Source: a virus (lineage: Duplodnaviria; Heunggongvirae; Uroviricota; Caudoviricetes). From it: a stretch of 12,878 nt of DNA. The position numbers and the translations under genes were made by a program. The stretch lies in IMG/VR virus record IMGVR_UViG_2681813225_000019. One strand, given 5' to 3'. Within the stretch, counting starts at the first letter, position 1, and the number at the start of each line of letters is the position of its first letter. Positions 4,487-12,649 of the stretch are shown here, one piece after another. The notes beneath the pieces are model-generated. The model saw only the letters and a list, made by a program, of their open reading frames with translations. It had not been told where the DNA came from and searched no databases.

Positions 4487-4537
4487 ACCAAACGACTCGG
4501 GGTGCCCTTCTGCGTGAAGGCTGAGAAATACCCGTAT
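4487..4537 (+). promoter_or_regulatory. 5' portion of the thiM TPP riboswitch aptamer (thi-box), truncated at an island junction
   Basis: AACCAAACGACTCGGGGTGCCCTTCTGCGTGAAGGCTGAGAAATACCCGTAT matches the E. coli thiM aptamer as I remember it, including the CUGAGA thi-box core. The expected continuation (CACCTGATCTGGATAATGCCAGCG...) is absent; island-type sequence follows. Confidence 0.7.
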
Positions 4538-4666
4538 TTTCTCATTTAGTGTTTTTTGTGGTTCGGGGTTGTTCGTGGTTGTTTGGATATATATTTGATA
4601 TTAAATGGAATGTTGCGTTTTCTTGTTTGTTATTGTTCGTCGTTGTTCGTAGAGCTTCAACGAAAT

Positions 4667-4690
4667 GTGTGGTCAGTTGTGTGGTCAGTT
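4667..4690 (+). repeat. Perfect tandem direct repeat, 2 x 12 bp (GTGTGGTCAGTT), 36 bp upstream of the int start
   Basis: GTGTGGTCAGTT at 4667-4678 and again at 4679-4690. Confidence 0.6.
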
Positions 4691-4725: not shown

Positions 4726-5946
4726 GTGGGAAAAGCACTAAACAAACTGAGCGATTCGACATTAAAAAAATTGGCGGCTGTCCAGGCAGAAAAAGAGCGT
4801 TTTTACTCCGACGGGGGCGGGCTGGAGATTAAACACTCAAAAGGCGGAAAATTAACCTGGTATTTCCGGTACCGAACGGGAGGCCGTGAGGTTGCCGCAG
4901 AGCGGTTAAAGCTGGGGGCTTACCCTGAATTGTCGCTGAAAGCTGCAAGGGAAAAACGCGCACAGTGCCGGGCATGGCTGGCTGAGGGTAAAAACCCCCG
5001 TTATGAGTTGTGCGCCACAGTACAGGAAGCGCTAAAACCCGTTACGGTGAAGGAGGCGATTAACTACTGGCTGGAGGAATATGCGAAGGATAACCGCAAA
5101 GACTACATAAAGCTGGTGCAACGTATGGATAAGCACATCATTTGCCATATAGGGGCAATTCCTCTTGATAAATGCGACACAAGGCAGTGGATCGCATGTT
5201 TTGACCGTGTACGAAAAAAAGCACCAGTAGCAGCGGGGCACGTCATGCAAACCTGCAAACAGGCGCTAAAGTTCTGCCGCAGGAGACGCTACGCGTTCAG
5301 TAATGCCCTGGACGATTTGATCGTCAGCGATGTGGGTAAGAGAGCAGAAATTCGCGAGAGGGTGCACAGTAACAGCGAATTAAAGGAAATTTTACGCGCT
5401 ATTGATGGTGATGTGTTCGCGCCTTACTACAGCGCGTTAATGCGCTTGCTGATTGTGTTCGGGTGCAGAACTGCAGAGGTCAGACTTTCAGAGATCAAAG
5501 AATGGGATCTGAAAGAAATGTTGTGGACAGTGCCAAAAGAGCACAGCAAAACGAAGGTAACGATATTCAGGCCAATCCCCGATGGCATTTTGCCGTTCAT
5601 TCAGAAGCTGGTGGATCAGAACCGGCATACAGGGTTATTGCTCGGAGAACTGAAAAAAGATACCACGGTAGCGCAATATGGGCGAAATGCGCATAAGCGG
5701 CTTAACCAGGAACATTGGTCACTGCATGACTTTCGCCACACGTTTACAACGATGCTGAACGATTTAGGTGTCGATCCGCATATCGTGGAGCACATCACAG
5801 CGCATCAGATGCCCGGTCAGCAAAAAACCTATAACCATTCACGCTATTTACAGGCGAAGCGGGACGCTCTGAATCTGTGGGTTGAGCGCCTCGATGTGCT
5901 GGCTGGAAATCATGAAAATATTGTTATGCTGAAGGTGGCCAAATGA
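4726..5946 (+). CDS. int: Tyrosine-type site-specific integrase (P4-like family), 406 aa
   Basis: GTG start at 4726 with AGAGGA seven nt upstream. C-terminal catalytic signature present (LHDFRHTF gives the HxxR box; YNHSRY gives the catalytic Tyr region). N-terminus resembles P4-family integrases (LSDSTLKKL). Adjacent to the island junction. Confidence 0.93.
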   Translation: MGKALNKLSDSTLKKLAAVQAEKERFYSDGGGLEIKHSKGGKLTWYFRYRTGGREVAAERLKLGAYPELSLKAAREKRAQCRAWLAEGKNPRYELCATVQEALKPVTVKEAINYWLEEYAKDNRKDYIKLVQRMDKHIICHIGAIPLDKCDTRQWIACFDRVRKKAPVAAGHVMQTCKQALKFCRRRRYAFSNALDDLIVSDVGKRAEIRERVHSNSELKEILRAIDGDVFAPYYSALMRLLIVFGCRTAEVRLSEIKEWDLKEMLWTVPKEHSKTKVTIFRPIPDGILPFIQKLVDQNRHTGLLLGELKKDTTVAQYGRNAHKRLNQEHWSLHDFRHTFTTMLNDLGVDPHIVEHITAHQMPGQQKTYNHSRYLQAKRDALNLWVERLDVLAGNHENIVMLKVAK

Positions 5947-6807: not shown

Positions 6808-7032
6808 ATGAATCAAAATACACAATTTCAATCACTATCAGATCGCGTAATCCGTGAGGATGAATGCCGTAAGTTAACAGGAGTGTGCCGCACTACACGC
6901 TACGAACTGGAGAAAAAAGGGAATTTCCCGTCACGCCGTAATCTGGGTGGTCGTTCAGTAGGTTGGCTGCTTTCCGAGGTTATGGAATGGGTTAAAAGCC
7001 GGGATCGTATTAATTCAGGCAAGGCAGCGTAA
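6808..7032 (+). CDS. alpA: AlpA-family phage regulatory protein / excisionase-like HTH regulator, 74 aa
   Basis: Small ORF with the AlpA-like C-terminal pattern (GGRSVGWLLSEVMEWV) and a central HTH (CRKLTGVCRTTRYELEKKGNFP); positioned between the int-proximal cargo and the replication module. Confidence 0.88.
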   Translation: MNQNTQFQSLSDRVIREDECRKLTGVCRTTRYELEKKGNFPSRRNLGGRSVGWLLSEVMEWVKSRDRINSGKAA

Positions 7033-7143
7033 AGGGGGGCATATGACACATAAAACAAAGGCGACCGCAGAGGGCCGCCAGTGGCATAACACTAAACTTG
7101 AGCATATCCAGAATACCAGGTTGTTGGCTGGTGGGCAATGCAA

Positions 7144-7320
7144 TCAGTCTGGTTCAGTTCGTTGCCATAACTGCGAAGCTCTCTCCTTTGATGAGTATTC
7201 TTTAAGGTACTTCTCAAGGGCAAAAGAACACGGCGCGAATCGTTCTGATTCATGCTCTTTCTTTCTGAGTCGTCTTTTTCGTGCAGGTGATGTTTTTTTG
7301 GTTGATTCTTCGTTGGTCAT
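7144..7320 (-). CDS. Possible small basic protein, 58 aa (below the cut-off of the supplied ORF track)
   Basis: Hand-translated minus-strand ORF, ATG at 7320 to TGA at 7146-7144: MTNEESTKKTSPARKRRLRKKEHESERFAPCSFALEKYLKEYSSKERASQLWQRTEPD. It lies 57 nt downstream of the RHH-like gene. No clear SD, so this is weakly supported. Confidence 0.3.
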   Translation of the reverse strand: MTNEESTKKTSPARKRRLRKKEHESERFAPCSFALEKYLKEYSSKERASQLWQRTEPD

Positions 7321-7377
7321 TGTGTGCGCCTGTAAAGCAATGCGCCGTAGTACCTCACACCACGGCGCTGGTGATGG

Positions 7378-7557
7378 TTACTCCTGCTCTTTGGCCTTGC
7401 GGCGCTGGCGGCGTTTGATTTCGCCTTTAACGGCAGTAACTATAAATTGCGCTTTGCTTTCACCTTCATCTAAATTTTTTTCTAAGTCTGCAACAACATC
7501 ATGCGGGAATCTGGCATTTAACTGTTGCGACTTATTATTTGTTGAACCTGTTGCCAT
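7378..7557 (-). CDS. Ribbon-helix-helix (CopG/Arc-like) small DNA-binding protein, 59 aa; candidate island repressor
   Basis: Minus-strand ORF from the internal ATG at 7557 (SD GAGAGGA upstream): MATGSTNNKSQQLNARFPHDVVADLEKNLDEGESKAQFIVTAVKGEIKRRQRRKAKEQE. The pattern fits an RHH fold (strand QLNARFP, then two helices). The 114-aa extension in the ORF track is not protein-like. Divergent from the replication operon. Confidence 0.55.
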   Translation of the reverse strand: MATGSTNNKSQQLNARFPHDVVADLEKNLDEGESKAQFIVTAVKGEIKRRQRRKAKEQE

Positions 7558-7740
7558 TACTGAATCCTCTCTAAGTTGGTGCGATTCAGTATACACAAAA
7601 AAATTCAGAGAAAAAGGCTTGAAGTGCGATTCACTTGCTGATAGGTTAAAAACAGATGGTGCGATGCACCAAATAACAACGCCCCGCAGTGCGGGAACAC
7701 ATACGGGGCGTCTAACCAACAACGTAAACTAGGAGCCGTT
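7558..7740. promoter_or_regulatory. Divergent control region between the RHH gene and the replication operon, with inverted repeats
   Basis: 9-bp inverted repeat TACTGAATC (7558-7566) / GATTCAGTA (7585-7593) spanning the RHH gene SD. GTGCGATTCA occurs at 7579-7588 and 7623-7632; TGGTGCGAT at 7577-7585 and 7657-7665. Further hairpin-like segments at about 7658-7670 and 7693-7706 were read by eye. Confidence 0.45.
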
Positions 7741-8298
7741 ATGGTTGCCGTAAATCATATACCACACCTTGTACACACACAAACGGCCTTTGTGTGGCGT
7801 TTTCTGGCCCTGAATATCGGAGAAAAAAACCAGTTGATCGCCAGTGTCGAAAATAGCTATGATTCCCGCGCACCTCATAAAACGGGTGCCGGGATTGGCG
7901 TCCTGGGCAAAACTGAAGCGCATAACACGCGCCCCGCGTGTTTTTTTGTGCCGCATAGTCACACCTTATCAATGGTGGGCTGTACGGGGGCGGAGCAATC
8001 CGCGCCGGTTTCTTCAGTGTCCGGTTACGCCAACCCTGTACAGTCCGCCACCAGCGAAATTGGCGTTTCCGGTGGCGGTTATCTTAACCACACTGAGGAG
8101 GCTGCCAACATGGCTACTATCCCTACCCTTGTACATTCTCAAACCGCCTTTCTCTGGCGCTTTATCATCTTTGGCGCGTCAGAACATCAAATCATCCACG
8201 TAACCGCCTGGACGGAACGCGAAGCGCGTAGCCGTTGCCCGTCAGGTTGTGTTGCTGTATTCGCCGCCCGTATTCGTCAGGGGGTGTGCCATGCTTAA
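7741..8298 (+). CDS. First ORF of the replication operon; 185-aa ORF made of two tandem paralogous small-protein modules (possibly two genes, with the second starting at 8110)
   Basis: ATG at 7741 with AGGAG upstream. Module 1 (...HLVHTQTAFVWRFLA...) and module 2 (MATIPTLVHSQTAFLWRFIIF..., own GAGGAGG SD at 8095-8101 and ATG at 8110) are clearly related. The module-1 equivalent of the module-2 C-terminus (VAVFAARIR) appears in a different frame (RVFLCRIV). Confidence 0.5.
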   Translation: MVAVNHIPHLVHTQTAFVWRFLALNIGEKNQLIASVENSYDSRAPHKTGAGIGVLGKTEAHNTRPACFFVPHSHTLSMVGCTGAEQSAPVSSVSGYANPVQSATSEIGVSGGGYLNHTEEAANMATIPTLVHSQTAFLWRFIIFGASEHQIIHVTAWTEREARSRCPSGCVAVFAARIRQGVCHA

Positions 8299-8476
8299 AA
8301 CCTTCCGTGTATTTGCCAGCGCTGTTAACCCACTAGGCCACACAATTGGTATCGCTCAGAATGTGAAGGCTGTTAATGTTCAGACGGCTATTGCTGCGGT
8401 GAGAAGCGAATCATCAGAATATGGCTTATCACAAGTCATTATTTCAGCAGTGTATGAATTAAAAGAGGTGCATTAA
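8291..8476 (+). CDS. Hypothetical small protein, 61 aa
   Basis: ATG at 8291 with AGGGGG six nt upstream, overlapping the previous ORF's stop; MLKTFRVFASAVNPLGHTIGIAQNVKAVNVQTAIAAVRSESSEYGLSQVIISAVYELKEVH. The longer start at 8249 is less likely. Confidence 0.55.
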   Translation: MLKTFRVFASAVNPLGHTIGIAQNVKAVNVQTAIAAVRSESSEYGLSQVIISAVYELKEVH

Positions 8477-8667
8477 TGAAGGAAATTACATTACACGAAG
8501 CCGCTGAACGTGCGCACCAGACAGAAATTATTTGCCGCCTTCTTGAGGTATACCCTAATAAATTAAATGATGGTGATATATCCGCATTAGCTGGCCTTCT
8601 GGCAAAACTGTCAGGAAGTGTTGCGCTGTGGTTAATTGATGAGAGAGCCGAACGCTATGAAAAATAA
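8476..8667 (+). CDS. Hypothetical small protein, 63 aa
   Basis: ATG at 8476 overlaps the upstream stop (TAATG); SD AAGAGGTG at 8463-8470. Confidence 0.6.
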   Translation: MKEITLHEAAERAHQTEIICRLLEVYPNKLNDGDISALAGLLAKLSGSVALWLIDERAERYEK

Positions 8668-8899
8668 TAAACTGGCGACCAGTGAATTAAGAAGCCTTGC
8701 CAACAGCGCAATATCTTTAAACAACGCAGCAAACGAAGTAATGAATATGTGGCTTCAGTCGCTGGTGAATAATGAACGCAATGAATCAACTGCAAGATTA
8801 ATATTAGCCGTTTCTGAATTACTGGATAGTTCAACCAGCAAAATAGAGAGCATATCAGAGAAGATTAACGGCTTATCAGGTCACGCTATCGGGGAATAA
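8657..8899 (+). CDS. Hypothetical small protein, about 80 aa (alternative start at 8636)
   Basis: ORF in the same coupled operon; ATG at 8657 overlaps the end of the previous gene; starts MKNNKLATSELRSLANSAISLNN.... Confidence 0.55.
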   Translation: MKNNKLATSELRSLANSAISLNNAANEVMNMWLQSLVNNERNESTARLILAVSELLDSSTSKIESISEKINGLSGHAIGE

Positions 8900-8904
8900 A
8901 AATA

Positions 8905-9204
8905 ATGAAACTTAAATATCCTGGCTTAACTGACAGCGGCAAAACTCGCACTAAATTCATGCGCGGGGATATTTACCGCGACCAGTACGGCGGCACGGTA
9001 ATGATTAAGGGCGTGGAGGAACGGCGCGTAACCTACCATCGTGAAGGCTACGAATATGATTGCGTGATGCCTGTTTATCAGTTCCGGCGTGATTTTTCTC
9101 TGGTACAGGCAGCGCCCCGCAGTAAACCAACCAGCAGGGAGAAAGCACGCGCCAATATTCAGGAAATAAAAAAGATGCTTAACGTATTCAGGGGTAAGAA
9201 ATGA
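8905..9204 (+). CDS. Hypothetical protein, 99 aa
   Basis: ATG at 8905 following the upstream stop at 8897-8899; its stop overlaps the start of the replication gene (ATGA at 9201-9204). Confidence 0.65.
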   Translation: MKLKYPGLTDSGKTRTKFMRGDIYRDQYGGTVMIKGVEERRVTYHREGYEYDCVMPVYQFRRDFSLVQAAPRSKPTSREKARANIQEIKKMLNVFRGKK

Positions 9205-11333
9205 AACTGGCACCGAACGTAAAAAAACAGCCACGCGGAATAAAACACAAAGACACAGAGGTAATTATTTTCGCGGGTAGTGATGCCTGGTCGCACGCGA
9301 AACAATGGCAGGAGCAGGATGGCCCCGCATCCGGCGATAATGTTCCGCCTGTGTGGCTTGGGCCAAATCAGCTTGCCGAACTTGATGCGCTGAAAATTGT
9401 TCCGGATGGAAAAAAACGCGTAAGGCTGTACCAGGCCGGAGAACTGGATTTGGTGGAGACCAAAAAGATTGGTCAGAAGCTGGCGGCGGCAGATATTCAG
9501 GACGCAAATTTTTACCCCGAAGGAATGCACGGTCAGAAGGTGGAGAACTGGCGCGAATATCTGGCCCGTGAGCGGCAGAATCTTTCTGATGGTCTGGTTA
9601 TTGAGTTTCCGGTAAAGAAAAAAGATACCGGAAGCCATAGCGATGACGAATTAAAGCCACGCGTTGAAAGTCGCGCCGATGGTGTTTTCTGGGTAACGCC
9701 CAAAGTGGATAAGCAGTCAGGCGAAATTATCCGGCCTGAGACGTGGTTATGTTCTCCGCTTGAACTACTGGGAACGGGGACGATCGGTAAAGAGCATTAC
9801 CGCGTGATGCGCTGGAAAAAAACCGCAAACCATAAAGTCATCACAATGGCGATCCCGTGTGGTGGTATCGGCGACCGTGACGGCTGGCGGTTACTTAAAG
9901 ATCACGGGCTGAACGTGACAACCAACGGCAAATACAGGGCAATCCTGGCGGACTGGATGCAGTTAAGCGGAAGCCATGAGGAATGGCAGTTAAGCACAAC
10001 AACGGGCTGGCATTTTGGCGCGTACATCATGCCGGACGGTTCGATCATTGGTGAATCTGAAAAACCGATCCTGTTTACCGGAAAAAGCGCCGCGATTAAC
10101 GGTTATTCCGTGGCGGGCACGGCGGATGGCTGGCGCGACAGCGTGGCGCGGCTGGCTGGCGGTAATGCCTCAATGATACTGGGTGTGGCAACGTCACTGG
10201 CAGCGCCTTTAATTGGCCTTGTGGGTGCTGACGGCTTCGGGGTGCATCTTTTCGAACAGTCATCGGCAGGTAAGACCACCACGCAGAACATCGCATCAAG
10301 TTTATGGGGAGAGCCGGACGCGCAGCGGCTGACCTGGTACGGCACGGCGTTAGGTATTGCCAATGAGGCCGAGGCCCATAATGACGGGCTTTTACCACTG
10401 GATGAGATAGGCCAGGCCGGAAATGCGCGGGAAGTGTCAACGTCTGCTTATACGCTGTTTAACGGTTCAGGGAAATTGCAGGGGGCGAAGGATGGCGGCA
10501 ACAGGGAGATCAAACACTGGCGAACGGTGGCAATCAGCACCGGAGAAATGGACGTTGAGACATTCCTCAAAAGTGAGGGGATAAAAGTTAAGGCGGGGCA
10601 GCTTGTCCGACTGCTTAACGTTCCGATGGAAAAAGCCACGAAATTTCACGAATACAGCAACGGTAAGGAACATGCTGACGCGTTAAAGGATGCCTGGACA
10701 GCAAATCACGGGGCGGCGGGTCGTGAGTGGGTTAAATGGCTGGCAGGCCACCAGCAGGAGGCAAAGGACACGGTAAGGGAATGCCGCGAACGGTGGCGCA
10801 ACCTGATACCGGAGAGTTACGGCGAGCAGGTCCACCGCGTGGGTGAACGTTTCGCCATACTGGAGGCCGCGCTTGTGCTTTCCGGTCATGTAACTGGCTG
10901 GGTCGTGCAGGAATGCCGCGACGCGATACAGCATAACTTTAATGCCTGGGTGAAGGAGTTCGGCACAGGTAACAGGGAATTTAAACAGATGGTTGAACAG
11001 GCTGAGGCGTTTTTGTCGTCGTTTGGGTTTAGCCGCTACCTTCCGTACCCCAATACAGATGAGCGTGATTTACCGATTAAAGAGCTTGCCGGATACAGAA
11101 AAGGGAGCATTCGCAACGAAGATGACGAGATGCGCTATTACACGTTCCCGCACGTGTTTGAGAGTGAGATAGCGAAGGGATTTAATCCGGCGCATTTTGC
11201 GCGTGCCCTGGATGCTGCCGGAATGCTGGAGAAGGGAAGCGATCGCCGATACAAAAAAAAGGCGCTGGGCAAGATTGGGGGTAAGCAGCATGTTTTTTAC
11301 GTGCTGATGTTCCAGCCTGATGATGAAGATTAA
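9201..11333 (+). CDS. Island replication protein, 710 aa: primase/helicase-like with a central P-loop NTPase (DUF927-type, family assignment from memory)
   Basis: Large ORF translationally coupled to upstream genes. Walker A-like SSAGKTT and Walker B-like LLPLDEIG present. Immediately followed by an iteron array, the arrangement seen in satellite/PICI replication modules. Confidence 0.88.
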   Translation: MKLAPNVKKQPRGIKHKDTEVIIFAGSDAWSHAKQWQEQDGPASGDNVPPVWLGPNQLAELDALKIVPDGKKRVRLYQAGELDLVETKKIGQKLAAADIQDANFYPEGMHGQKVENWREYLARERQNLSDGLVIEFPVKKKDTGSHSDDELKPRVESRADGVFWVTPKVDKQSGEIIRPETWLCSPLELLGTGTIGKEHYRVMRWKKTANHKVITMAIPCGGIGDRDGWRLLKDHGLNVTTNGKYRAILADWMQLSGSHEEWQLSTTTGWHFGAYIMPDGSIIGESEKPILFTGKSAAINGYSVAGTADGWRDSVARLAGGNASMILGVATSLAAPLIGLVGADGFGVHLFEQSSAGKTTTQNIASSLWGEPDAQRLTWYGTALGIANEAEAHNDGLLPLDEIGQAGNAREVSTSAYTLFNGSGKLQGAKDGGNREIKHWRTVAISTGEMDVETFLKSEGIKVKAGQLVRLLNVPMEKATKFHEYSNGKEHADALKDAWTANHGAAGREWVKWLAGHQQEAKDTVRECRERWRNLIPESYGEQVHRVGERFAILEAALVLSGHVTGWVVQECRDAIQHNFNAWVKEFGTGNREFKQMVEQAEAFLSSFGFSRYLPYPNTDERDLPIKELAGYRKGSIRNEDDEMRYYTFPHVFESEIAKGFNPAHFARALDAAGMLEKGSDRRYKKKALGKIGGKQHVFYVLMFQPDDED

Positions 11334-11355
11334 TCCCCTGTGTGAGGAAAAAAAT

Positions 11356-11671
11356 TGCGGGTTATGCGGGTTATCCTGTGTATAAGTGTATTAAGCGCAT
11401 GAATATAAAGGAAATCAATAACCCGCACGTAACCCGCAAAAGGGCATTTATAACCCGCAAAAGCACGATTATAACCCGCAGGCGAATAACTGAAGTAACA
11501 CCGGACAGTCATGCGTAACCCGCAGAAAAAACCCCGTTTGCGGGTTATTTTGAGCATTTTGCGGGTTATGTGGTGAGCAAATAATAAACAGGGCGTTTTG
11601 CAACATGCTGATATAAAAGGATAAAAAATGGTTAGCACGCTAAGATAACCCAATAACCCGCATAACCCGCA
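11356..11671. repeat. Iteron array; putative origin of replication of the island
   Basis: TAACCCGCA at 11419, 11430, 11451, 11472, 11516, 11654 and 11663; inverted copy TGCGGGTTA at 11356, 11365, 11539 and 11560. Spacings of 9, 11, 21, 21 and 21 bp approximate helical-turn multiples. An AT-rich tract (ATATATATATAAATT, about 11681-11695) follows. Confidence 0.75.
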
Positions 11672-11705
11672 CATGTTTCTATATATATATAAATTGAGGT
11701 GGCAA

Positions 11706-11957
11706 ATGACCAGAACACGCAGAGACAGAACAGAGCCGAAATATAAAGCGTTAGATATAACAGAGCTGGCCTTAAAGGTGGCAATCAGAACGATAGACCG
11801 ACATGTAGGGGAAGGATACGCGAAGGAACATCCCGACCTGATAAGCGCATTCATGACCACAGCAGCGGCAAACTTTGCCACGTTGACAGAACGGGAGATT
11901 GCCGAAGCGGAACAGGTAACAACCATCAACGTTAAAACCGGAGAGCAGACAGCATGA
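11706..11957 (+). CDS. Hypothetical protein, 83 aa (start chosen at the internal ATG with GAGGTGG SD)
   Basis: ATG at 11706 preceded by GAGGTGG (11694-11700); stop overlaps the start of the SSB-like gene (ATGA at 11954-11957). The longer start at 11673 lies in the AT-rich origin tract. Confidence 0.6.
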   Translation: MTRTRRDRTEPKYKALDITELALKVAIRTIDRHVGEGYAKEHPDLISAFMTTAAANFATLTEREIAEAEQVTTINVKTGEQTA

Positions 11958-12364
11958 CAGCACAGATAGCGGCTTACGGGCGGCTGGTGGACGACCCGCA
12001 GGTAAAACAGACCAGCAAGGGAACACCGATGACGCTGGCGCGTATGGCGGTATCGCTGCCATGCAGCCAGGCACATGACGGACAGGCGACGTTATGGTTA
12101 TCGGTTATCGCATTTGGCAAACAGGCCGATTTCCTGGCTAAACATCAAAAAGGCGATGTTGCCAGCGTATCCGGCACGATGCAGGTAAGCCAGTGGACCG
12201 GACAGAACGGGGAAACGCGGCGGGGGTATCAGGTTATTGCAGACAGCGTAATCAGTGCCCGTGCGGCACGTCCTGGCGGGAACAGACGCAAGACCACAGG
12301 CACACAGGGTAATCAGCCACCAGCGGAAGGCGATGACCCTTACGGTGATGATATTCCGTTCTGA
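11954..12364 (+). CDS. ssb: Single-stranded DNA-binding protein-like (OB fold, acidic C-terminal tail), 136 aa
   Basis: SSB-like layout: IAAYGRLVDDPQVKQTSKG, W...V.AFGKQADFLAKHQKGDVASVSGTMQVSQWTGQNGETRRGYQVIAD, Gly/Pro/Gln-rich linker and C-terminal DDIPF, the SSB protein-interaction tip. Confidence 0.85.
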   Translation: MTAQIAAYGRLVDDPQVKQTSKGTPMTLARMAVSLPCSQAHDGQATLWLSVIAFGKQADFLAKHQKGDVASVSGTMQVSQWTGQNGETRRGYQVIADSVISARAARPGGNRRKTTGTQGNQPPAEGDDPYGDDIPF

Positions 12365-12376
12365 GGGGTGGGGACG

Positions 12377-12649
12377 ATGGTACATGACCGCATAGCGGAA
12401 GAACTGGAGGCGAAAGGCTTTTACCGGAGAGCGTCGGCGCGATGGGGTGAAGTCATGCAACTGGTGGAGACAGACAAGGAACGGCATCACATCACGATGC
12501 GACGGCTGGAATGTTCCAGGAAGGCACAGAGGCCACCGGAGCCGCCGGATAATTACGGAGACCTGAAAAAGGCGGTCGATCGCACTTATGCCGAAATGGG
12601 TATGGATGGTGCTGGTGATGAAATATGGCGAAATTACCAGGACAGATAA
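12377..12649 (+). CDS. PerC-family transcriptional regulator-like protein, about 90 aa (alternative GTG start at 12368)
   Basis: MVHDRIAEELEAKGFYRRASARWGEVM... resembles the N-terminal region of PerC/Pch-type regulators, as recalled from memory. ATG at 12377 preceded by GAGGGGTGGGGA. Confidence 0.7.
   Translation: MVHDRIAEELEAKGFYRRASARWGEVMQLVETDKERHHITMRRLECSRKAQRPPEPPDNYGDLKKAVDRTYAEMGMDGAGDEIWRNYQDR

Follow-up and report, generated by a model that had tools for sequence, protein, structure and literature searches.

What does the long open reading frame (ORF) at positions 7741–8298 (plus strand) of the IMG/VR virus record IMGVR_UViG_2681813225_000019 (Caudoviricetes; 12,878 nt, the window) encode? 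It comprises 185 codons, and an ORF of 62 codons with a Shine-Dalgarno (SD) sequence of its own is nested in its 3' end (8110–8298, plus strand). From the sequence the locus had been described as two tandem related modules interspersed with homopolymer tracts, and a frameshifted duplicate, slippage-prone phase variation or a fused two-domain protein had been considered (the original prediction). Our analysis points to another answer. With a probability of roughly 85% the locus is the immunity region of a P4-like satellite island of the phage-inducible chromosomal island (PICI) type, built as in phage P4, with eta- and kil-like frames nested over immunity RNAs. The arrangement is known, namely P4-type RNA immunity, and the sole minor variant is an in-frame Icd-like stub at the beginning of the long frame.

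Both ORFs exist as predicted. The long one, taken from the ORF list of the window, carries AGGAG (7731–7735) 5 nt upstream of its ATG, and the ATG of the nested one at 8110 is preceded by GAGGAGG. The 62 amino acid product matched the NCBIfam family NF033153 (phage_ICD_like), a domain of 48 positions with a curated cut-off of 25 bits, at about 57–60 bits (57.2 bits). The previously noted resemblance to Icd-like small proteins is correct. This match falls on residues 137–180 of the long ORF. Residues 40–133 matched the Pfam family Phage_ASH (PF10554) with 63.3 bits, and precisely this part of the frame corresponds to an internal promoter and two RNA genes. The long ORF begins upstream of this promoter, runs across both RNA genes and ends in the kil-like ORF.

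The internal promoter (7834–7863, plus strand) was found by a promoter scan as a sigma-70-like motif, TTGATC and TATGAT with a spacing of 18 nt (9 of 12 matches), which ends 6 nt upstream of the first RNA gene. Neither hexamer varied among the promoter-region variants that the search pattern recovered, and the two encode the conserved QLI and YD residues of the Ash match. This promoter is the counterpart of P4 PLE. The first RNA gene (7870–7946, plus strand) specifies a leader RNA of the IsrK/seqA type (Rfam RF01394, 66 bits versus a gathering score of 50). On the same strand it contains two target sites, a (TTGGCGT, 7895–7901) and b (ACTGAAG, 7912–7918), and the terminator scan revealed an intrinsic terminator consisting of a hairpin at 7924–7942 and a T7 run. 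The second RNA gene (7968–8055, plus strand) encodes an antisense RNA of the C4/CI type (Rfam RF01695, 77.6 bits versus 45). Its fold exhibited a z-score of -5.2 and presents the exposed loop b' (CTTCAGT, 8012–8018) and the single-stranded segment a' (ACGCCAA, 8027–8033). A seqC-type target follows at 8060–8101 (plus strand) with a site a (TTGGCGT, 8060–8066) and a site b (ACACTGAGGAGG, 8090–8101), the latter covering the SD sequence of the kil-like ORF. For comparison 80 IMG/VR loci and several E. coli loci were used. IsrK followed by C4 was detected in all 20 related loci scanned with Rfam, among the 80 loci nhmmer recovered the pair wherever the locus was not truncated, and the kil ATG lay 56 nt from the C4 3' end in every locus examined.

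The base pairing between these elements was followed in an alignment of 16 distinct specificity types. The two leader sites were paired with a' and b' of C4 in 99.2% of the cells, and 12 of the 15 pairs showed compensatory changes. For C4 and the target sites at 8060–8066 and 8090–8101 the corresponding values were 94.1% and 13 of 19 pairs. Slid controls yielded only 32–49% pairing. The internal helices of C4 and IsrK were paired to 96%, with compensatory change in 20 of 45 pairs. Duplex scans were carried out with the exposed C4 loops only, since unfolding of the long C4 stem yields strong energies everywhere and makes scans with the whole C4 uninformative. In the window the exposed C4 segments formed a duplex of -32 kcal/mol (z = -4.0) with the leader and of -39 kcal/mol (z = -5.6) with the seqC-type target. 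Judged by this covariation, C4 pairs with both the leader and the target over the kil ribosome binding site (RBS).

The same elements are found in P4 (NC_001609), where isrK (8615–8692) and C4 (8420–8507) lie on the minus strand in the same order as in the window. IsrK corresponds to P4 seqA and C4 to the P4 CI immunity RNA (PMC3632133; PMC4825925). P4 eta occupies 8168–8767 (minus strand; 197–199 amino acids from an MMM start), and its last 65 codons constitute kil (8168–8365). P4 Kil matched NF033153 with 76 bits, and residues 22–146 of P4 Eta matched Phage_ASH with 82 bits. The P4 layout and these family matches thus identify the ORF of the window as an eta-like frame in which a kil-like gene is nested. 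Of the features characteristic of the P4 type, the following are found here: a C4/CI RNA with the three-helix structure of its family, an IsrK/seqA leader with promoter and terminator motifs, two complementary sites, one of them over the RBS, and a kil gene nested in a long frame.

According to Forti et al. 1999, as summarised in PMC10111431, the constitutive promoter of P4 lies within eta, and its transcript is terminated through CI/seqA interactions. In that summary Kil is a truncated Eta translated on read-through, full-length Eta is produced only from the upstream late promoter, and translation of Eta prevents termination. By analogy, the promoter at 7834–7863 would constitutively drive a transcript containing first the leader with its terminator and then the C4/CI-type RNA. 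The mature C4 would pair through its two exposed segments with the leader site and with the site over the kil/icd-like RBS, and in this way block kil translation. As in P4 and P1, it would also cause premature termination. Both effects together would keep the coupled downstream operon (small ORFs, DUF4222 and primase) switched off in the resident state. The 185-codon ORF, as the counterpart of P4 eta, would be translatable only from transcripts initiated further upstream, and ribosomes moving over leader, C4 and target sites would override the RNA block. Because of this ribosomal bypass, selection on the middle part of the frame would act on its openness and not on its amino acid sequence.

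The reading frames of the cassette were compared. Between leader and kil ATG the kil frame was free of stop codons in 36 of 45 unique sequences, compared to 7 and 0 for the other two frames. A crude estimate of the ratio of non-synonymous to synonymous polymorphism (pN/pS) gave 0.37 for kil. For the middle segment it was 0.78–0.87 in the frame of the ORF and 0.91–1.04 in the other frames. AlphaFold, supplied with a shallow alignment of 24 sequences from which the P4 row was excluded, predicted no secondary structure for residues 1–133, with a predicted local distance difference test (pLDDT) score below 50. The sole part with a predicted fold was a small beta-beta-alpha-beta unit formed by residues 134–179. 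Moreover, each conserved residue block of the middle segment coincides with one of the promoter hexamers, RNA stems or target sites, and the reading frame in which P4 crosses the IsrK terminator is not that of the window (RVFFC versus ACFFV). It fits the P4 model that translation across the cassette matters and the peptide encoded by its middle part does not.

These data bear directly on the explanation that the ORF encodes a genuine protein of two or three domains (Icd-like stub, "Ash" and Icd-like domain), the middle of which has a protein function of its own, with the RNA matches being secondary. The open frame in most homologues, its continuation into much longer ORFs in many relatives, the existence of a Pfam family for the middle segment with a 63-bit match, and the inclusion of Phage_ASH among the domain-swapping "Bro network" hidden Markov models in PMC10111431 would agree with such a protein. 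However, the middle segment showed a pN/pS of about 0.8–0.9 that is nearly equal in all three frames, its substitutions obey base-pairing rules, and neither the predicted structure, nor the location of the conserved blocks, nor the frame used by P4 through the IsrK terminator agrees with it. By pLDDT and pN/pS the segment does not behave as an independently folding, selected domain. We consider a multidomain protein of this kind unlikely. The fused two-domain protein of the original prediction is correct in a formal sense only: its middle consists of a promoter, two RNA genes and target sites, and exhibits neither codon-phase constraint nor a predicted fold. Since the match of PF10554 covers the promoter-leader-CI-seqC stretch in P4 Eta as well, Phage_ASH seems to represent for the most part a translated promoter together with two translated RNA genes.

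Several observations speak against the P4-type interpretation or reduce its weight. Nine unique sequences contain stop codons in the kil frame: L031, L065 and seven from the group L066–L084, which we take to be P1-like on the basis of its 71 amino acid Icd. Taken alone, the window gives only weak significance for the openness of the frame (P = 0.017 for the full 369 nt, P = 0.13 for the RNA part), and the +1 frame is likewise stop-free across the RNA part. Because the comparison loci had been retrieved by searching with the long protein, they are biased towards open frames. For this locus the start of transcription, the processing of the RNAs, Rho-dependent termination, the effect of translation and the toxicity of Kil are assigned by analogy. 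For a promoter upstream of the long ORF the operator-like repeat array is no more than a hint. Finally, the coupling of the long frame to vis/alpA known from P4 was not found in the window, where two minus-strand genes (7144–7320 and 7378–7557) and a gap of 183 nt separate alpA (6808–7032) from the ATG at 7741. Coupling of the frame to an upstream gene was seen in two relatives, L001 and L090.

The N-terminal part of the long ORF distinguishes it from P4 Eta. Residues 7–33 of the long ORF (IPHLVHTQTAFVWRFLAL) align with residues 4–29 of the nested ORF (IPTLVHSQTAFLWRFIIF). The local BLOSUM62 score was 75–80, compared to 23 ± 4 for shuffled sequences (maximum 47), corresponding to a z-score of about 14, and at the DNA level 7757–7803 aligned to 8117–8163. 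Thus, a partial N-terminal duplication indeed exists, as the original prediction had claimed, but it extends over about 27 residues and does not comprise two whole modules. The 43 amino acid stub alone did not match NF033153. Within the first module no signal of RNA structure was obtained (z = +0.5). We interpret this module (7741–7833, plus strand) as a 5' stub of about 28 codons from a resident icd-like gene, to which the cassette of A-tract, promoter, RNAs and kil would have been joined in frame. The pN/pS of the stub, estimated from few alleles, was 0.38–0.59, with more synonymous than non-synonymous change per site; this is suggestive of, but not conclusive for, constraint at the protein level. 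A role of the module as a third C4 target was also considered. The segment 7794–7815 pairs with the exposed C4 at -26 kcal/mol (z = -2.6), which was judged to be chance. This reading was dropped because its TGGCGT is a conserved Trp-Arg codon pair that remains constant where the C4 specificity differs, for example in L010. ORFs on the minus strand over 7729–7972 were without support.

Alternatively, the first module could be a frameshifted, decaying duplicate of the icd-like gene, with the long ORF arising by chance read-through. Only the first 27 residues or so of the copy remain, and in strain E2865 the NCBI Prokaryotic Genome Annotation Pipeline (PGAP) annotates the identical region as two separate features, an incomplete pseudogene of the "ash family" and an Icd-like gene. 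The sequence of E2865, however, is 99.7% identical to the window without gaps or frameshift, and its frame is open. The lost C-terminus, which had been recognized in another frame (RVFLCRIV compared to VAVFAARIR), did not hold up: the alternative frame scored 25 against the nested ORF, a value reached by 33% of the shuffles, and RVFLCRIV falls on the terminator of the IsrK-like RNA. Both the window and hundreds of homologues of 166–205 amino acids keep the long frame intact, an outcome that the original prediction had itself named as refuting it. Two independent fusion forms, with a short and a long stub, both have an in-frame junction, in a tandem form the cassette ORF is coupled to the upstream gene, and the excess of synonymous change in the stub does not agree with decay either. 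Decay is therefore very improbable, and we retain the in-frame stub of a resident icd-like gene.

Two 7-nt homopolymers within one ORF might also act as slippage tracts that toggle the long ORF by phase variation. The A7 and T7 runs are present, each displaced by one base from the position first given: they occupy 7823–7829 and 7941–7947 (both plus strand), respectively. The A7 run corresponds to positions -47 to -41 of the internal promoter, where it would occupy the place of the proximal UP element. The A run was compared in 26 loci, which gave 18 distinct promoter-region sequences. Its length varied between 5 and 7 by substitution only, in a constant register beside the -35 hexamer, and no change of length by insertion or deletion was observed; the sample comprised the fetched loci and not the whole set of 143 near-identical copies in E. 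coli. As for the T7 run, it forms the U-tract at the IsrK terminator. It was T7 in 74 of 85 terminator matches, and the terminator T run is present in all IsrK homologues including P4. In addition, runs of this kind are frequent in the window, which contains 15 of length at least 7. Phase variation thus has hardly any probability, and the two tracts are accounted for as parts of the promoter region and the terminator.

A protein search yielded 780 homologues, mostly of 166–205 amino acids, with names such as "Icd-like", "ash family" or "Ash-like/Icd-like". The Icd-like N-terminal copy is confined to a subset of the loci, and four forms of the icd/cassette locus were distinguished, all of which coexist in E. 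coli. Form A is a single Icd-like gene of 66 amino acids with the N-terminus of the first module, lacking the RNAs, in the same island context (Shigella L003 and E. coli L089). In form B a complete icd is followed by a cassette ORF whose ATG overlaps the icd stop codon (L090; the annotated layout of L091 is the same). In form C (L022, L023, L087 and L088) a long stub of about 45 codons (...FIALSTAQPRVITIEATSEQEARQ) continues in frame into the A-tract and promoter, and in form D, represented by the window, a short stub of about 28 codons is fused in frame. The long stub resembles the kil allele of L042, and in L022 it was detected as a second NF033153 stretch. Form A is widespread in complete E. 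coli genomes, where 10 of the 12 matches listed were single and contiguous; a search across genome contigs with a single protein as query yielded one locus, the Shigella single-gene form. Form D was found in 143 complete genomes at a coverage of at least 80%, and among the matches listed all were 99.7% identical. In every case the left boundary of the cassette is the A-tract. The forms may have arisen from one another by insertion or by deletion.

Tentatively, the RNA immunity cassette (A-tract, promoter, leader, C4, target and kil) may behave in this island family as a portable unit that is always joined to a resident icd-like gene in such a way that upstream translation crosses it. The direct repeats of stub and kil 5' ends might then serve as handles for gain or loss of RNA immunity, and the requirement for uninterrupted translation might keep the junctions in frame. 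We regard this as possible but rather doubtful.

A second C4-type RNA was observed about 480 nt downstream of the first in L009, L013–L016, L020, L034, L036, L037, L090 and L091; these loci therefore contain tandem immunity cassettes. In L036, where Rfam was run, the second C4 is preceded by a leader of the c4-a1b1 type and not by IsrK, and the second cassette of L090 gave a C4 match without an IsrK-type leader. In lambdoid prophages (L068–L071 and phage records) the IsrK-C4 unit is located in the 5' part of a long ORF whose part after C4 is a Rha-type antirepressor. This antirepressor part opens with a kil-like start context, ...EAAxMAT(I/T)P.

RefSeq gives this DNA three different annotations: an "ash family" pseudogene together with an Icd-like gene, a single long "Icd-like" protein, or an "Ash-like/Icd-like" fusion. 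The incomplete pseudogene of E2865 was called despite the intact frame, and in another strain the homologous region is annotated as a single Icd-like protein of 179 amino acids. The RNA genes are rarely annotated, the exceptions being two Shiga toxin (Stx) phage records. The two RNA genes explain the conservation of this DNA, yet they usually remain unannotated. The comparison set represents a clean multi-allele covariation series for an interaction of three RNA partners, leader, antisense RNA and RBS. It serves to define the immunity specificities found across P4-like satellites, PICIs, lambdoid prophages and the loci taken as P1-like, and the series of single, tandem and fused forms suggests how cassettes move between elements. 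The known mechanism is unchanged by these findings.

Downstream of the kil-like ORF a further ORF of 61 codons (8291–8476, plus strand) starts at ATG 8291 and overlaps the kil-like stop codon (ATGCTTAA). PGAP gives the same start in L001 (4623–4865), and no family match was obtained with Pfam and NCBIfam. Because of the overlap this ORF is probably translationally coupled to the kil-like gene, and it probably stands at the head of the operon leading to the primase gene. The window as a whole consists of chromosomal DNA of the E. coli type, with yeh fimbrial genes, rcnA and rcnR, and an adjoining integrative element. The latter contains genes for an integrase (4726–5946), AlpA (6808–7032), a DUF4222 protein (8905–9204), a DUF927-type primase (9201–11333) and a single-strand binding protein (SSB, 11954–12364). 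Between alpA and the long ORF a 58 amino acid ORF (7144–7320) and a YlcI/YnfO-family gene of 59 codons (7378–7557, starting at ATG 7557) are located on the minus strand. An ORF of 229 amino acids on the plus strand (7043–7732) in the same interval is probably no gene; the minus-strand pair is annotated in related E. coli islands. A repeat finder revealed three copies of the partly palindromic sequence GTGCGAT(T/G)CA on the plus strand (7579–7588, 7624–7633 and 7659–7668) with spacings of 45 and 35 nt. This triple occurs nowhere else in the window and recurs with the same spacing in L002 and L032, and it is a candidate for an operator array or a regulated upstream promoter of the long ORF.

The island is inserted inside the thiamine pyrophosphate (TPP) riboswitch of thiM. 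Only the 5' half of the aptamer is found in the window (4488–4537; Rfam TPP 21 bits versus 54), with the junction near 4537/4538. Of 5426 complete E. coli genomes 5404 match up to position 4537, and only 72 continue into the island. Strain PKF11 (L091) carries an 11.5-kb PICI at this site, with the core AGAAATACCCGTAT repeated at both ends (~880 and ~12530). There the 3' half of the aptamer remains with thiM, and no complete TPP riboswitch was detected in PKF11; thiMD is therefore probably uncoupled from TPP control in carriers. Directly downstream of the primase gene (11349–11697) at least 12 copies of the iteron TGCGGGTTAT in both orientations are followed by (TA)n. Such an array is probably the replication origin of the element, and a 248 amino acid ORF on the minus strand at this position is probably spurious. 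Upstream of int (4625–4690) there is a block of at least 39 nt (TTGTTTGTTATTGTTCGTCGTTGTTCGTAGAGCTTCAAC...) which is rich in GTTGTTCGT and GTGTGGTCAGTT repeats. It was also found near both ends of the PKF11 island (979–1017 and 12384–12422), and may represent arm-type sites of the integrase.

Among known systems, the island as a whole is of the same type as the Gram-negative PICIs and helper-embedded PICIs with immunity RNAs in their "Bro zone" (PMC10111431), with int, alpA, an Ash/Icd gene, DUF4222, primase and SSB, and with capsid and terS genes in relatives. Rfam matches for C4 and isrK inside a Phage_ASH-containing ORF are likewise part of that description; the Icd-like stub and the series of single, tandem and fused forms are not described in the passages considered.

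The isrK-orf45-anrP-isrJ region of Gifsy-1 in Salmonella (PMC4825925) also comprises an IsrK with its own terminator, followed by a processed C4-like RNA (STnc1160) on read-through transcripts. STnc1160 overlaps a short ORF that is conserved in nucleotide but not in amino acid sequence, and the next gene is translationally coupled (PMC4825925). In contrast to the window, where the downstream gene is Icd-like, the downstream gene of Gifsy-1 encodes the antirepressor AnrP, and IsrK activates translation in trans (PMC4825925). By these analogies repression of the P4 type is better supported for this element than activation of the Gifsy-1 type.

The immI region of P1 and P7 (Citron & Schuster 1990; Riedel et al. 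1993, as cited in PMC8201110) shares with the window a C4 antisense RNA that is processed from the transcript of its own target, and a target that covers the RBS of an Icd-family gene whose translation is required for downstream expression. It differs in its leader: the window contains an IsrK-type leader with terminator, and Rfam gave no match there to the c4-a1b1 leader (RF03163), an element present in L035 and L036. Furthermore, the gene overlapping the icd-like stop codon is the 61 amino acid ORF without family match instead of an antirepressor, and the seven unique sequences from L066–L084, taken as P1-like, lack the long open frame. Inhibition of cell division or killing on overexpression is known for P1 Icd and P4 Kil only (PMC8201110; PMC10111431).

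The closest correspondence is to P4 itself. The pairing specificity is different, with a' being ACGCCAA in the window and TTCTCAC in P4, and b' being CTTCAGT and CCTGTGAA, respectively. The spacer between leader and C4 measures 21 nt in the window and 108 nt in P4. The long ORF of the window begins with the Icd-like stub and not with the N-terminus of P4 Eta, and instead of being coupled to alpA/vis it follows a divergent ylcI/ynfO-like gene and the three-copy repeat array. In contrast, the window and P4 agree in the order and strand of the IsrK/seqA-type leader and the C4/CI-type RNA, in the fixed distance of 56 nt between the C4 3' end and a kil ATG preceded by ..GGAGGCTGCC.., in the two-site complementarity to leader and RBS, and in an Icd-like Kil of 62–65 amino acids at the end of a frame of about 185–199 amino acids that begins upstream of the internal promoter.

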